A DNA stretch of 64,000 nt, taken from NCBI RefSeq assembly GCF_029227855.1, contig NZ_CP074356.1, one strand, 5' to 3'. Below are positions 12,301-19,129 of the stretch, piece after piece. The notes under the pieces are model-generated. The model was given only the letters and a program-made list of their open reading frames with translations. It was not told the origin of the DNA and ran no database searches. Position numbers and translations under genes: made by a program. Numbering within the stretch: the first letter of the stretch is position 1; every line of letters starts with the position of its first letter. Source of the stretch: Escherichia coli (GTDB lineage: Bacteria > Pseudomonadota > Gammaproteobacteria > Enterobacterales > Enterobacteriaceae).

Positions 12301-12848
12301 CACCGGACGGGCGGCTGACGGCGAAAAATGCCGATATTAGCGGTAACGTGAATGCGAACTCCGGGACGCTCAACAACGTCACGATTAACGAGAACTGCCG
12401 GGTTCTGGGAAAACTGTCCGCGAACCAGATTGAAGGCGATCTCGTTAAAACAGTGGGCAAAGCTTTCCCCCGGGACTCCCGTGCACCGGAACGGTGGCCA
12501 TCAGGGACCATTACCGTCAGGGTTTATGACGATCAGCCGTTTGACCGGCAGATTGTTATTCCGGCGGTGGCATTCAGCGGCGCTAAACATGAGAGAGAGC
12601 ATACTGATATTTACTCCTCATGCCGTCTGATAGTGCGGAAAAACGGTGCTGAAATTTATAACCGTACCGCGCTGGATAATACGCTGATTTACAGTGGCGT
12701 TATTGATATGCCTGCCGGTCACGGTCACATGACGCTGGAGTTTTCGGTGTCAGCATGGCTGGTAAATGACTGGTATCCCACAGCAAGTATCAGCGATCTG
12801 CTGGTTGTGGTGATGAAGAAAGCCACCGCAGGCATCAGTATCAGCTGA
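9369..12848 (+). CDS. Host specificity / central tail fibre protein (lambda gpJ-like)
   Basis: 1159 aa; the first ~800 aa match recalled lambda J closely; the C-terminal ~300 aa differ. Confidence 0.95.
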
Positions 12849-12867
12849 ATTTTATAACCCATATACG

Positions 12868-12892
12868 GGCGCCAGAAATGGCGCCTTTTTTA
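12868..12892 (+). terminator. Intrinsic terminator after J
   Basis: GGCGCC-AGAAAT-GGCGCC hairpin followed by TTTTTTT. Confidence 0.6.
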
Positions 12893-12915
12893 TTGCAGAA
12901 AAGCGAGAGGTAATT

Positions 12916-13515
12916 ATGCGTAAAGTTTGTGCCGCCATTTTTTCCGCAGCCATTTGTCTGGCCGTATCCGGTGCGCCTGCATGGGCATCTGAACATCAGT
13001 CCACGCTGAGCGCGGGGTATCTTCATGCCTCGACGAACGTTCCCGGCAGCGATGATCTGAACGGGATTAACGTGAAATACCGTTATGAGTTTACGGACAC
13101 ACTGGGGATGGTGACGTCATTCAGCTATGCAGGAGACAAGAATCGCCAGCTTACCCGTTACAGCGATACCCGCTGGCATGAAGATTCCGTGCGTAACCGC
13201 TGGTTCAGCGTGATGGTGGGGCCGTCTGTGCGCGTGAATGAATGGTTCAGCGCGTATGCGATGGCGGGTATGGCTTACAGCCGTGTTTCGACTTTCTCCG
13301 GAGATTATATCCGCGTAACTGACAACAAGGGGAAAACGCACGATGTGCTGACCGGAAGTGATGACGGTCGCCACAGCGACACGTCTCTGGCATGGGGGGC
13401 TGGCGTGCAGTTTAACCCGACCGAATCCGTGGCCATTGATATTGCTTATGAAGGTTCCGGCAGTGGCGACTGGCGCACTGACGGTTTCATCGTTGGTGTC
13501 GGTTATAAATTCTGA
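12916..13515 (+). CDS. lom: Lom-like outer membrane beta-barrel protein (Ail/PagC/OmpX family)
   Basis: 199 aa with signal peptide, alternating aromatic beta strands and terminal Phe; sits after J as in lambda. Confidence 0.9.
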
Positions 13516-13541
13516 TTAGCCAGGTAACACAGTGTTATGAC

Positions 13542-13569
13542 AGCCCGCCGGTTCAGGCGGGCTTTTTTG
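13542..13569 (+). terminator. Intrinsic terminator after lom
   Basis: AGCCCGCC-GGTTCAG-GCGGGCT hairpin followed by TTTTTT. Confidence 0.6.
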
Positions 13570-14272
13570 TGCACAGAAAACCCCCAGCTAGGCTGGGGGT
13601 TCCGGAAAGCTTTCAGCTTTGAGCCAGTTATTAAAACCCCTTTTGATTTGTTAAAACACTTTGCGGTCTGGCAACTGCAAGTGTCAAACAAGAAATCAAA
13701 AGGGGGTCCCAATGGGGAACGAAAAGAGCTTAGCGCACACCCGATGGAACTGTAAATATCACATAGTTTTTGCGCCAAAATACCGAAGACAGGTGTTCTA
13801 CAGAGAGAAGCGTAGAGCAATAGGCAGTATTTTGAGAAAGCTGTGTGAGTGGAAAAGCGTACGGATTCTGGAAGCTGAATGCTGTGCAGATCATATCCAT
13901 ATGCTTGTGGAGATCCCGCCCAAAATGAGCGTATCCGGGTTTATGGGATATCTGAAAGGGAAAAGCAGTCTGATGCTTTACGAGCAGTTTGGTGATTTGA
14001 AATTCAAATACAGGAACAGGGAGTTCTGGTGCAGAGGGTACTACGTCGATACAGTGGGTAAGAACACGGCGAAGATACAGGATTACATAAAGCACCAGCT
14101 TGAAGAGGATAAAATGGGAGAGCAGTTATCGATTCCCTATCCGGGCAGCCCGTTTACGGGCCGTAAGTAACGAAGTTGGATGCAAATGTCAGATCGTGTG
14201 CGCCTGTTAGGGCGCGGCTGGTAAGAGAGCCTTATAGGCGCATTTGAAAAACCTCCGGCTATGCCGGAGGAT
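13568..14272 (+). mobile_element. IS200-type insertion sequence (IS200/IS605 family); boundaries approximate
   Basis: About 0.7 kb, a single Y1 transposase gene, left-end hairpin AAAACCCCCAGC-TAG-GCTGGGGGTT and a second stem-loop over the tnpA ribosome binding site. Confidence 0.65.
13712..14170 (+). CDS. tnpA: IS200-type transposase TnpA (HuH Y1 transposase)
   Basis: 152 aa with an HxH-type motif (HIHMLVEI) and the usual IS200 TnpA length. Confidence 0.85.
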   Translation: MGNEKSLAHTRWNCKYHIVFAPKYRRQVFYREKRRAIGSILRKLCEWKSVRILEAECCADHIHMLVEIPPKMSVSGFMGYLKGKSSLMLYEQFGDLKFKYRNREFWCRGYYVDTVGKNTAKIQDYIKHQLEEDKMGEQLSIPYPGSPFTGRK

Positions 14273-14290
14273 ATTTATTGTGGAGTGGAT

Positions 14291-16696
14291 ATGGCAGCAG
14301 TAAAAATCTCAGGTGTGCTGAAAGATGGTGCGGGAAAACCAATACAGAACTGCACTATTCAACTGAAGGCAAAGCGTAACAGCACCACGGTACTGGTGAA
14401 CACGGTGGCTTCTGAAAATCCGGATGAAGCCGGACGTTACAGCATGGATGTTGAGTATGGCCAGTACAGCGTCACCCTGCTGGTTGAAGGTTTTCCGCCT
14501 TCACATGCCGGGACCATTACCGTCTATGAAGGCTCCAGACCAGGTACGCTGAATGATTTTCTCGGTGCCATGACGGAAGATGATGTCATGCCGGAGGCAT
14601 TGCGTCGTTTTGAGGCAATGGTGGAAGAAGTGGCACGCAACGCCGAAGCCGCCTCTCAGAGCGCAGCGGCGGCAAAGAAATCCGAAACTGCAGCGGCATC
14701 ATCAAAGAACGCGGCGAAAACCTCAGAAACGAATGCAGCTAATAGTGCACAGGCGGCAGCGACCTCAAAGACTGCATCGGCAAACTCCGCGACAGCAGCC
14801 AAAAAATCAGAAACCAACGCGAAAAATAGCGAGACAGCCGCAAAGACGAGCGAAACCAACGCAAAGTCCAGCCAGACGGCAGCGAAAACCAGCGAAACGA
14901 ATGCCAAAGCCAGTGAAACTGCGGCAAAAAACAGCCAGGTTGCAGCAGCCCAAAGCGAGAGCGCGGCAGCCGGTTCTGCGACTTCAGCAGCTGGATCAGC
15001 AACTGCTGCGGCTAACAGCCAGAAAGCTGCGAAGACGAGTGAAACTAACGCAAAGTCCAGCCAGACGGCAGCGAAGACCAGCGAAACGAATGCCAAAGCC
15101 AGTGAAACTGCGGCGAAAAGCAGTCAGGATGCAGCGGCCCAAAGCGAGAGTGCCGCAGCCAGTTCTGCAAGCGCGGCGGCTGCTTCTGCCACTGCATCAG
15201 CCAACAGTCAAAAAGCAGCAAAAACCAGTGAAACCAACGCAAAGGCGAGCGAGACTGCGGCGGCGAACTCGGCGCAAGCATCGGCAGCAAGCCAGACAGC
15301 AGCTAAAGCAAGTGAAGACGCAGCCAGAGAGTATGCAAGCCAGGCAGCGGAGCCGTATAAATATGTCTTACAGCCACTGCCTGATGTGTGGATACCGTTT
15401 AACGATTCACTGGATATGATTACGGGCTTTTCGCCATCATATAAAAAAATTGTTATTGGCGACGATGAAATAACAATGCCTGGCGACAAGATTGTAAAGT
15501 TTAAACGCGCATCGAAAGCAACTTACATTAATAAATCTGGTGTGCTGACAGAGGCTGCCATTGACGAGCCACGATTTGAACGTGATGGCCTGCTTATTGA
15601 GGGGCAAAGAACTAACCTGCTAATCAATTCAACAAATCCGACTAAATGGAACAAGTCGTCAAATATGATCTTAAGTGCATCAGGTGTAGATGATTTCGGA
15701 TTCCAGTACGCAAAATTTACATTAAAACCAGAAATGGTAGGGCAAATTTCAGCGATTAACATAGTAACCGTTTCCGGCAGTAAAGGTTTTGATGTAACAG
15801 GCGGAGAAAAGTATGTAACCATATCATGCAGGGTGCAAAGTGGCACTCCAAATTTAAGATGCCGATTACGATTTGAAAACTATGATGGTTCTACCTACAC
15901 ATTCTTAGGTGACGCTTACTTAAATACGACAGATTTATCTATTGATAAGACGGGTGGTGCCGCTAATCGCATTACTGCAAGGGCTGTTAAAGATGAAGCA
16001 AGCAAATGGATCTTTTTTGAGGCGACAATTAAGGCACTTGATACAGAAAATATGATAGGTGGAATGGTTCAGTATGCCCCGGCAAAAGGAGTGGGCACTG
16101 GCGCGGATGATTATATTTATATTGCGACCCCTCAAGTTGAAGGTGGGGCGTGCGCTTCATCGTTTATTATAACAGGCGCATCCCCTGTAACACGCGCCAG
16201 CGATATTGTAACGGTCCCCATTTCTCTAAATTGGTGCAATCCCGCTATTAGTTCATTAGCAGAAGTTAATACCAATTGGGATGAATCGCCAAACAAAGAA
16301 GGTAGCGCACGTATTCTTAATATTTCCACTACGGGAGATACAACTGAAATTGCAGATGAAAGTTATATGTATTTGGGGTATACATCTTTGGGAGCACGCG
16401 CAATCATTACAAATGGTAAAGGCACTAAAATAGAATATAAAAGCGTTATAGAACGACCAGAGAGAAAAAGCATTATCGGCTTTAGATTCACAGAAAGTCG
16501 AGAATTGTGTGTTGTGGTTAACGGTAATATTGGTGCTAAGGTGGTTTCTCCTTATAAAAAACACAAATATACAGGAGGCTTCATTAATATTGGTGGTCAA
16601 TCATCATCCGGCAACCGTCACCTATTTGGACACGTTCGAAATCTGCGTATTTGGCACAAGGCATTGACTGATGCTCAGATGGGGGAGTCAATCTAA
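14291..16696 (+). CDS. stf: Side tail fibre protein: lambda Stf-like N-terminus, Ala/Ser/Thr-rich repeats, divergent C-terminus with LamG/concanavalin-like domain
   Basis: The first ~130 aa match recalled lambda Stf (MAVKISGVLKDG..QNCTIQLKAKRNSTT); the C-terminal region is AT-rich and ends in a LamG-type motif (NLRIWHKALTDAQM). Confidence 0.9.
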   Translation: MAAVKISGVLKDGAGKPIQNCTIQLKAKRNSTTVLVNTVASENPDEAGRYSMDVEYGQYSVTLLVEGFPPSHAGTITVYEGSRPGTLNDFLGAMTEDDVMPEALRRFEAMVEEVARNAEAASQSAAAAKKSETAAASSKNAAKTSETNAANSAQAAATSKTASANSATAAKKSETNAKNSETAAKTSETNAKSSQTAAKTSETNAKASETAAKNSQVAAAQSESAAAGSATSAAGSATAAANSQKAAKTSETNAKSSQTAAKTSETNAKASETAAKSSQDAAAQSESAAASSASAAAASATASANSQKAAKTSETNAKASETAAANSAQASAASQTAAKASEDAAREYASQAAEPYKYVLQPLPDVWIPFNDSLDMITGFSPSYKKIVIGDDEITMPGDKIVKFKRASKATYINKSGVLTEAAIDEPRFERDGLLIEGQRTNLLINSTNPTKWNKSSNMILSASGVDDFGFQYAKFTLKPEMVGQISAINIVTVSGSKGFDVTGGEKYVTISCRVQSGTPNLRCRLRFENYDGSTYTFLGDAYLNTTDLSIDKTGGAANRITARAVKDEASKWIFFEATIKALDTENMIGGMVQYAPAKGVGTGADDYIYIATPQVEGGACASSFIITGASPVTRASDIVTVPISLNWCNPAISSLAEVNTNWDESPNKEGSARILNISTTGDTTEIADESYMYLGYTSLGARAIITNGKGTKIEYKSVIERPERKSIIGFRFTESRELCVVVNGNIGAKVVSPYKKHKYTGGFINIGGQSSSGNRHLFGHVRNLRIWHKALTDAQMGESI
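14837..15214 (+). repeat. In-frame tandem duplication, 2 x 189 bp (63 aa each), inside stf
   Basis: Two near-identical 63-aa units (AAKTSETNAKSSQTAAKTSETNAKASETAAK...ANSQK) within a wider 9-aa periodic region. Confidence 0.8.
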
Positions 16697-17691: not shown

Positions 17692-17701
17692 AGGAGGCGT
17701 A

Positions 17702-17995
17702 ATGGATATAACACCTTTCCTTCATGCACTTTGTGCTGTGGCTGCGCAGGTACTGGTTGGTCTTTTTACCGGAAACTGGGCTTACGGGGCGATAGCTGGT
17801 TGTACGTTCTTCATTGCGCGTGAACATACCCAGGCAGAATATCGCTGGATTGAAATGTTCGGGCATGGCAAGCGTATGAATATGCCGTGGTGGGGCGGTT
17901 TTGATCCGCGTGCGTGGGATGTGGCAAGCCTGATGGATTTTGCTGTGCCGGTGGTGGCGTGTCTGCTGGTCTGGCTGTTGGTTAATCGTGGGTGA
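17702..17995 (+). CDS. Hypothetical small membrane protein (2-3 predicted TM segments)
   Basis: 97-aa ORF with hydrophobic stretches; GGAGG Shine-Dalgarno upstream. Confidence 0.45.
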   Translation: MDITPFLHALCAVAAQVLVGLFTGNWAYGAIAGCTFFIAREHTQAEYRWIEMFGHGKRMNMPWWGGFDPRAWDVASLMDFAVPVVACLLVWLLVNRG

Positions 17996-18005
17996 AAAAA
18001 GGTGA

Positions 18006-18125
18006 GCTGTATATGCAACGGAGGAAGAAACCTCGTTGCGGGAAGCCTTGAAGAAGTATCGGGTGTTGCTGAACCGTGTTGATACGTCAACTGCACAGGA
18101 TATTGAATGGCCAGCACTGCCGTAG
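18006..18125 (+). pseudogene. tfa: Tail fibre assembly (Tfa) gene remnant: only the conserved C-terminal ~39 codons
   Basis: Translation [29 protein letters not shown] matches the conserved Tfa C-terminus; the frame closes at a stop just upstream at 18003-18005. Confidence 0.55.
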
Positions 18126-18222
18126 GGTAAAACATATAAATTCTATAATTAGATGTATCTTTCCATTTACGGCAAGGAAGGGGGCTTGGAAGACGTAAGG
18201 CATCTCACACCGAGATTATTTT

Positions 18223-18813
18223 TTATATGTCAGGTGTCTGAAGTTTTGCTTTGGCTCTTAAAATGGTTTGCCGCGAGGTTTTGAATTCCCGGGCAATGGC
18301 ACTTATACTTACACCTGACTTAATCCGTTCGAATACCACCTGTTTCTGTTCTTCATTTAACACAGGTGGTCGACCAAAACGTTTCCCTGCGCCCCGGGCT
18401 CTTACTATCCCGGAATGAGTGCGTTCAAGTAAAAGGTCTCGTTCAAATTCAGCGACTGCTGAAATTACTTGCATCATCATTTTTCCTGTTGGACTGGTCA
18501 GGTCAATGCCCCCCAATGCTAAGCAATGCACTCTGATACCTGTTTCGGTCAGTTGTTCCACTGTTTTCCTGATATCCATTGCATTACAACCAAGGCGATC
18601 CAGTTTTGTCACAATCAATTGATCACCACATTTCAGGCGAGCAAGCAACCGGTTAAAACCAGGACGCTCACTGGTTGCTGCTGAGCCGCTAATGTGTTCT
18701 TCGATTATTTGCTGAGGTTTGATTTTAAAACCTGCACTTTCGATTTCCCGGCGTTGATTTTCGGTGGTCTGATCCAGCGTTGATATCCGACAGTAAGCAA
18801 AAATTCGAGACAT
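18223..18813 (-). CDS. pinQ: Serine recombinase / DNA invertase (PinQ/PinR-like)
   Basis: 196 aa; N-terminal catalytic region (YCRISTLDQ) and C-terminal helix-turn-helix; convergent with the tfa remnant, next to ydfK. Confidence 0.85.
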
Positions 18814-19129
18814 AGTGAGACTCTATACGAAATTGGTGTTCATATCATAATGCATCTCAGAAAATAATTTTGATTATTTTTTTGCATGTTTGTATGTACA
18901 CGTTCGAAAATAAACGAATGCGTATGCAACCCCGTAATTTTGGTGAGACCCAAAATCGATTTTGTGAAAAATGGCTTTAACTCGGTTTGTTTTTCGAGTT
19001 CCGGGCGGACTCAAGGAAGAAGAATAGTGTTGCGTGTTATTTTAACCAGATTTCAAGTTGTTTGGTCGTGGAAAAGTGGAGCAAAATGTTGTTAAAGTGG
19101 AAAAATGATAAAAAAGTAAGTTTATTATA

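Follow-up and report, generated by a model that had tools for sequence, protein, structure and literature searches.

A complete IS200C element inserted precisely behind the lom terminator of an Escherichia coli prophage

We found a complete 711-bp IS200C element on the + strand of the window (the whole 64-kb stretch of Escherichia coli DNA analysed here), where it occupies positions 13569..14279 between the lom terminator and the ribosome-binding site of the side tail fibre gene stf. Our best explanation as a whole, to which we assign a probability of about 90%, is that an intact IS200C inserted recently and precisely behind the lom terminator and that stf is little affected. We are nearly certain that the feature is an intact, tnpA-only member of the IS200 group in the IS200/IS605 family and, jointly with this identity, that its insertion was both precise and recent. 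That stf suffers little polarity is a probable reading of the sequence. Neither the element nor its type is new, and the insertion itself is routine and ordinary.

The window reads ...GGGCTTTTTT/GTGCACAG...GGATATTTATT/GTGGAGTGGATATG across the two junctions (slashes), with the element starting as GTGCACAG at 13569 and finishing as GGATATTTATT at 14279. All of its 711 nucleotides are identical to a CFT073 copy annotated as 'IS200/IS605-like element IS200C family transposase' (711/711 nt, using a 736-nt query that included 9 + 16 nt of flank). Among 5,426 complete E. coli genomes, 3,097 contain the same element, which occupies 10,889 places in total and up to 35 per genome, far beyond what chance would give. 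The copies are dispersed among unrelated flanks and relatives have precise empty sites, as is characteristic of a mobile element. No second IS200 copy is present within the 64-kb window.

Comparison of the filled with the empty site showed exactly 711 added bases, with neither flanking direct repeats nor a target-site duplication at the element, and a repeat search of the element itself found no terminal inverted repeats. The bases TTGTG are common to both junctions, and the limits are thus formally ambiguous by up to 5 nt (13569-14279 or 13572-14282). We settled the ends by a search for exact matches to the left-end hairpin in a single genome of each species, which gave ~120 IS200/IS1541 copies in hosts including Yersinia pestis (IS1541), Edwardsiella, Pluralibacter, Brenneria, Vibrio and several metagenome-assembled genomes. 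Regardless of their flanks, nearly all full-length copies start with GTGC(A/C)CAGA and finish with GGATATTTATT, and head-to-tail IS dimers in Y. pestis join as ...TTTATT/GTGC.... The copies with unrelated flanks and the IS-IS dimers fix the limits at 13569-14279, and we rejected 13572-14282. The shared TTGTG does not represent a target duplication, because GTGC is the conserved IS start in the ~120 copies with unrelated flanks. A sequence-only reading of this DNA had proposed an IS200-type element between lom and stf with limits at 13568-14272. The discrete element is indeed there, as borne out by Y1 transposase profiles, the STnc490 match and IS200-type ends that agree with those of the ~120 copies, but the proposed start is 1 nt early and the proposed end, which stops at the right-end hairpin, is 7 nt short.

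The sole ORF of the element, tnpA (13712..14170, + strand), encodes a Y1 HUH transposase of 152 aa, in line with the single Y1 transposase in a ~0.7 kb element that had been read from the sequence. This assignment comes from profile and structure homology. TnpA matches NCBIfam transpos_IS200 (E=1.9e-43, 147.7 bits, cutoff 55) and Pfam Y1_Tnp (E=5e-38), and its homologues in the PDB are a Sulfolobus TnpA (2ec2, E=4e-23), IS608 TnpA (2a6m, E=4e-19) and ISDra2 TnpA (2xm3, E=2e-16). The HUH motif (HIH) is formed by residues 61-63, and the catalytic tyrosine is residue 125; the Y125F mutant of the Salmonella IS200 transposase is catalytically dead (PMC4513863).

Both ends of the element contain a subterminal hairpin on the same strand. 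The left-end hairpin, which the sequence-only reading had correctly spotted, maps to 13579..13601 (+ strand, element nt 11-33) and consists of a perfect 10-bp inverted repeat, AACCCCCAGC-TAG-GCTGGGGGTT, with a stable predicted fold (-11.7 kcal/mol, z=-3.7). In Salmonella IS200, the hairpin at nt 12-34 is a rho-independent terminator that works in both directions and stops impinging transcription (PMC4513863), and by conservation the left-end hairpin of IS200C is a putative terminator. The right end (14252..14279, + strand) is built from the hairpin CCTCCGGC-TAT-GCCGGAGG (14252-14270) followed by the terminal ATATTTATT; this hairpin folds with -10.0 kcal/mol (z=-4.7) and is terminator-like on both strands. 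The two hairpin regions form a direct repeat with 78% identity, with an A-run located 5' of each. Subterminal hairpins on one strand at both ends, together with the missing terminal inverted repeats, represent the architecture of the IS200/IS605 family, in which recognition of the two ends takes place on a single strand (PMC3333891, PMC5027513). In its transposase, ends and insertion site, the present copy has the defining features of this family and of the IS200 group.

Upstream of tnpA, a second structured segment at 13637..13705 (+ strand, element nt 69-137) combines an inverted repeat with an RNA fold of -41.3 kcal/mol (z=-3.7), in which the Shine-Dalgarno sequence AAGGGGGU pairs with ACCCCUUUU. 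We assign to this 5'UTR stem-loop a putative role in sequestering the Shine-Dalgarno sequence, following the map of Salmonella IS200, where the left-end terminator spans nt 12-34 and the sequestering stem-loop nt 69-138 (PMC4513863). The same map and sequence conservation suggest a minus-strand feature over the 5' region of tnpA, at approximately 13631..13720 (- strand). The Rfam family RF01405 (STnc490) matches 13579..13702 (+ strand), covering the left-end hairpin and the tnpA 5'UTR stem-loop from end to end (144.6 bits, E=8e-31, gathering score 56). The Rfam STnc490 model fits the sense (+) strand, whereas the published art200 RNA is antisense.

The upstream neighbour of the element is lom (12916..13515, + strand), an ORF of 199 aa for an outer-membrane beta-barrel protein of the Ail/Lom type; it is annotated as Ail/Lom family in CFSAN061763 and CFT073, and its matches to NCBIfam Ail/OmpX-type models are below cutoff. 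The lom intrinsic terminator, which served as the insertion target, is located at 13542..13568 (+ strand) and contains a GC-rich hairpin, AGCCCGCC-GGTTCA-GGCGGGCT, followed by six T that end at 13568 (DNA fold of -10.4 kcal/mol, z=-3.9). A terminator scan likewise scored it as a terminator-like site. It is unchanged in empty sites, the annotations of phages Ayreon and mEp460 place a terminator between lom and stf, and phage lambda is arranged in the same way, with small differences in the hairpin and the ribosome-binding site. An Rfam Trp_leader match at 13488-13570 (27.3 bits, gathering score 41) is sub-threshold and merely reflects the terminator hairpin, and an ST7-AS1_2 match is likewise sub-threshold. 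IS200C sits exactly 3' of the lom T-tract, and 2 nt separate its end from the Shine-Dalgarno sequence of stf. Directly 3' of the element, GTGGAGTGGATATG represents the start of the stf region, with the ribosome-binding site followed by the ATG. The stf feature (14282..16696, + strand) comprises this site (GGAG, 14282-14285), the ATG at 14291 and an intact ORF of 801 codons, with a CDS as long as that in the empty-site genome (2,406 nt). Its N-terminus is homologous to lambda orf-401. The orientation of tnpA is that of lom, stf and the phage late operon.

We compared the window with a near-isogenic prophage in CFSAN061763, which occupies the Qin/ydfJ locus. There, the empty site reads ...GGGCTTTTTT/GTGGAGTGGATATG, beginning with GTGGAG after the junction, and in a longer reading, common to CFSAN061763 and phage 2G7b, ...GGCGGGCTTTTTT GTGGAGTGGATATG. 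To the left of the element, we found a single mismatch in 13,571 nt (99.99% identity); to the right, identity is 99.06% over 31 kb. In the 3.2 kb 3' of the element, there are 8 substitutions, all of which map to stf. IS200C represents the only structural difference between the two prophages over 45 kb. A query with joined flanks located contiguous lom and stf flanks in thousands of E. coli prophages and in ~160 phage records. All five of the closest complete genomes have the empty site, and the exact configuration of the window was found in none of the complete E. coli genomes searched. Together, the empty sites in the nearest relatives and the missing counterpart among complete genomes point to a recent and private event.

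We analysed the left flanks of other copies to define the target. Of 118 unique non-IS flanks of IS200/IS1541 from many species, 92 (78%) are terminator-like by a strict rule that asks for a stem of at least 5 bp (3 or more of them GC pairs), a loop of 3-8 nt and a tail rich in T that ends at the IS. Random positions drawn from the same loci obey this rule in 1.9% of cases, and generic TTT[TAG]TT sites in 10.8%. Most of the remaining flanks are visibly imperfect hairpins with T-runs. Over the six bases next to the IS, the flank consensus is TTT(T/A/G)TT; of the 118 flanks, 113 have T at position -5, 116 at -2 and 105 at -1. The element's own end shows this same motif (TTTATT), and insertion occurs 3' of this short target in a fixed orientation. 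The association with terminators is not new, as the strongest signal in a 2025-26 preprint already comes from terminator-like sequences that lie upstream of IS200/IS605 elements. The upstream hairpin at these targets could reflect recognition by TnpA, or it could merely reflect the survival of harmless intergenic insertions.

The junction between lom and IS200 is present in 150 of the 5,426 complete E. coli genomes, among them ST73 and ST131 reference strains and CFT073. The CFT073-type copy is located in a different prophage that adjoins ssrA, with an identical IS and flanks that are 96% identical (4% diverged). In strain 24A16CRGN010, an IS200 variant that is 4% diverged follows the fifth T of the tract instead of the sixth (a 1-nt offset). 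These sequences indicate that the lom terminator has been struck more than once by IS200 in different prophages.

On the + strand of the window, GC skew is positive across the chromosomal part, and the Qin/ydfJ region is presumably part of the left replichore according to the K-12 map, although replichore assignment is uncertain near the terminus. The active top strand would then lie on the lagging-strand template, which is consistent with the rule predicted for the family, in what is a single instance near the terminus and inside a prophage. Members of the IS200/IS605 family transpose via a single-stranded circle by 'peel and paste' (PMC5027513, PMC2806898). By analogy with IS608 and ISDra2, the top strand of IS200C would be excised at another location as a single-stranded circle by a TnpA dimer, and the circle would then be inserted 3' of a T-rich cleavage site, in single-stranded DNA of the lagging-strand template. 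The choice of a hairpin followed by TTTNTT may be based on its resemblance to the element's own right end, a hairpin followed by ATATTTATT. The A-runs 5' of both IS hairpins could pair with the T-rich cleavage sites, as the guide bases do in IS608. In the lysogen, tnpA would be kept silent, with the lom terminator and the left-end hairpin blocking outside transcription, and with translation prevented by the stem-loop of the 5'UTR together with art200, an antisense RNA. During lytic growth, a Q-modified RNA polymerase that already reads through the lom terminator should pass the IS hairpins too. The right end recreates a hairpin and T-rich context in front of the intact stf ribosome-binding site and ORF, and stf expression is thus probably little affected.

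It had been suggested from the sequence that the element may cut stf off from upstream late transcription, which we consider doubtful. Even without the insertion, stf lies behind a strong terminator, in every empty site as well as in lambda, and since the lom terminator directly precedes stf in all empty sites, the gene must normally be reached by terminator-resistant transcription. The late transcript of lambda is Q-modified, and late transcription is presumably Q-antiterminated in the present prophage as well: its near-isogenic counterpart in CFSAN061763, which carries a few pseudogenes, contains a gene for a Q-family antiterminator upstream of the holin, lysozyme, terminase and tail genes. 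In the phage records Lambda_ev058 and PhiR63_2, an IS200 in the same orientation is found right after a hairpin and TTTTTATT, between ren and ninB and upstream of Q. We take this site to lie inside the N-antiterminated pR operon and the terminator to be lambda tR2, an assignment without such an annotation in the lambda record.

A strong polar block, with the left-end terminator (alone or together with the right-end hairpin) stopping late transcription, stf and the downstream tail-fibre genes silent and particles without fibres, is set against several observations, and we regard it as unlikely. It draws support from the right-end hairpin, which looks like a terminator in both directions, from the published function of the IS200 left-end hairpin as a terminator against impinging transcription, and from the discovery of IS200 as a polar insertion in hisD (PMC4513863). 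However, the terminator in front of stf in empty sites and lambda, the Q antiterminator encoded in the near-isogenic prophage and the tolerance of IS200 upstream of Q in the two phage records all argue against such a block. The insertion also persists in 150 genomes, including the ST73/ST131 lineages, although prophage genes may escape selection. The two extra hairpins and 711 bp could partially attenuate stf, even with Q. A search of 12800-14500 found no sigma-70-like promoter, and thus nothing to suggest that stf is driven by an outward promoter.

We also considered other origins and roles for this copy. The element may have been imported by homologous recombination, as a short gene-conversion patch from a lambdoid prophage with IS200C at its lom terminator, such as the CFT073-type prophage. 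Lambdoid prophages are mosaic, the 150 genomes with this junction are potential donors, and the IS with its immediate flanks is 100% identical to CFT073, the closest mismatches flanking the element at distances of 74 nt (left) and 130 nt (right). Import would, however, require two crossovers within these 74- and 130-nt tracts, and the identity of the IS is uninformative in this respect, because all IS200C copies are near-identical. The site obeys the general target rule of the element, and the other IS200 variant located 1 nt away in another genome shows independent transposition into the lom terminator. We thus find import improbable and favour transposition of IS200C into its present site. 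A rather different proposal, that the importance of this copy is mainly that of an RNA gene, would have an essentially immobile IS contributing 5'tnpA and art200 as host regulatory sRNAs, and thus an added dose of them. The full-length STnc490 match, the intact 5'UTR structure and the regulatory role of the 5'tnpA sRNA in Salmonella speak for it; according to two reports, this sRNA regulates invasion and other regulons (10.1101/2024.06.26.600842; PMC5435999). We consider this very unlikely as the main role, as the recent and precise insertion indicates that the element is mobile here, and tnpA is intact with its catalytic residues. A regulatory function could go together with the best explanation and does not compete with it. 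Finally, the same position in 150 E. coli genomes might suggest a conserved, non-mobile phage accessory gene (moron) that resembles a Y1 transposase, a possibility that the sequence-only reading had raised against itself. We can practically dismiss such a gene, which is refuted by the near-isogenic and the many other related prophages and phages that precisely lack the element; moreover, thousands of unrelated loci contain the identical sequence, and the end structures of IS200 are complete.

We compared IS200C to other members of the family. The copy in CFT073 is the same element with the same 152-aa TnpA and the same lom and stf junctions, and it differs in its host prophage only, which is adjacent to ssrA in CFT073 and occupies the Qin/ydfJ site here. 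The IS200 of Salmonella enterica (707-710 bp) is ~91.5% identical in nucleotide sequence (Salmonella houtenae copy) and shares the layout of IS200C, with a left-end terminator hairpin, a stem-loop sequestering the Shine-Dalgarno sequence, the art200/STnc490 region and a 152-aa TnpA with Tyr125. At 711 bp, the present IS200C is a few nucleotides longer, and the regulatory functions are known from the Salmonella element alone. In IS1541 of Y. pestis and Y. pseudotuberculosis, the 25-nt left-end hairpin is identical to that of IS200C, as is the hairpin of the right end with ATATTTATT; the left end of IS1541 reads GTGCCCAGA compared with GTGCACAGA in our IS200C. IS1541 likewise inserts next to terminators; in Y. 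pestis, a different host, it reaches a higher copy number and forms tandem IS-IS dimers. The more distant IS608 (Helicobacter pylori) and ISDra2 (Deinococcus radiodurans) encode homologous Y1 HUH TnpA proteins. They resemble IS200C in their subterminal hairpins in direct orientation and likewise have no inverted repeats, produce no target duplication and insert 3' of a short specific sequence. Their top strand is active when located on the template of the lagging strand, with which the placement of the present copy is consistent. Unlike the tnpA-only IS200C, both also carry tnpB, and they target TTAC or TTGAT, whereas the target of IS200C is T-rich (TTTNTT) and usually located behind a hairpin. 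The cleavage sites and guide sequences of IS200C are predicted by analogy with these elements.

Because insertion takes place 3' of a terminator hairpin and T-tract, IS200 copies seldom do harm, and this target rule accounts for the site described here, where lom, its terminator and the translation signals of stf are all undisturbed. The near-isogenic empty site documents a recent and precise transposition of an element that is widely described as essentially immobile. The value for annotation is routine, as IS200C is curated and the junctions of lom, IS200C and stf are already annotated in 150 complete E. coli genomes; the recurrence of IS200 at antiterminated phage terminators adds a small extra beyond a routine insertion. 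A broader idea, to which we give a rather slim chance, is that IS200-group elements use intrinsic terminators as targets, repeatedly including antiterminated lambdoid ones, and that read-through upon induction couples tnpA expression and movement to the lytic cycle. With N or Q as the antiterminator, such targets would include the lom terminator, struck in several prophage lineages, and the terminator between ren and ninB, struck in two phage genomes. If this were true, the insulating left-end terminator would be read through at induction, when phage replication supplies abundant single-stranded DNA, and a dormant IS would gain the phage as a vehicle between hosts. If antitermination drives transcription through the element, it would offer a testable route to IS200 activation.

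We compared the IS200C element of the window with other IS200 copies located behind terminator hairpins. In E. coli 24A16CRGN010 (NZ_CM148325.1), an IS200 variant, which is ~4% diverged and whose TnpA accession differs from that of the window copy, occupies the lom terminator (locus L004, 3291-4055). It is inserted behind the fifth T of the terminator, versus the sixth T in the window. Because the variant is diverged and its insertion point is offset by one T, the sequence comparison suggests that 24A16CRGN010 acquired its element by an independent insertion into the lom terminator also used in the window. A second terminator-like hairpin followed by TTTTTATT is located between J and lom (12867-12894), and lom is therefore flanked by intrinsic terminators on both sides within the late operon. 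No IS element is present at this J-lom hairpin in the window.

Two lambdoid phage records, Lambda_ev058 (LR597651.1, locus L126, 2501-3211) and PhiR63_2 (PV340574.1, locus L127, 2501-3211), contain IS200 copies that share 99.7% and 98.6% identity, respectively, with the window element. In both, IS200 is found between ren and ninB, directly behind a hairpin and TTTTTATT, which we take to be the position of lambda tR2. Here, the element is oriented in the direction of the pR operon, with Q located downstream.

At 13579-13702 of the window, the match to Rfam STnc490 is on the sense (+) strand and covers the hairpin of the left-end terminator. The art200/STnc490 sRNA described in the literature runs antisense to the 5'UTR of tnpA (PMC4513863). 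The Rfam family and the published RNA appear to disagree in strand and extent.

The exact 25-nt left-end hairpin of enterobacterial IS200 is also found in metagenome-assembled genomes assigned to distant phyla (loci L005-L065), labeled Oxalobacter, Bacillota, Mailhella, Desulfovibrio, Peptococcaceae, Saccharibacteria and Elusimicrobiaceae. Near-identical IS200 ends could have spread horizontally over a very wide range of hosts, or the matches could instead represent binning or contamination artefacts; the hairpins are mostly located ~90-130 nt from a contig end, and in some assemblies down to 13 nt.

Within stf, a long repetitive stretch rich in Ala, Ser, Thr and Lys (14650-15420) contains units such as KTSETNAKSSQTAAK. 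The window and its isogenic relative differ by 8 substitutions in the 3.2 kb compared, clustered at 15362-15403, and the CFT073 annotation splits the stf equivalent into several fragments. A Pin-type recombinase, named pinQ in the isogenic genome, is encoded 3' of the tail-fibre genes (~17700-19000; ORF 18223-18813, - strand). It adjoins a truncated tail-fibre-assembly gene, and together the two look like what is left of a tail-fibre segment that was once invertible. The Qin site, with a truncated ydfJ, is where the prophage is located.

Yersinia pestis NCTC5923 harbors head-to-tail tandem dimers of IS1541 (loci L070 and L072) and left ends located behind the right end of another copy (loci L069 and L116). 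The spacing in these dimers is ~710 bp, with the left end directly abutting the right end of its neighbor. This arrangement is consistent with the IS1541 right end, a hairpin followed by TTTATT, itself serving as an insertion target.
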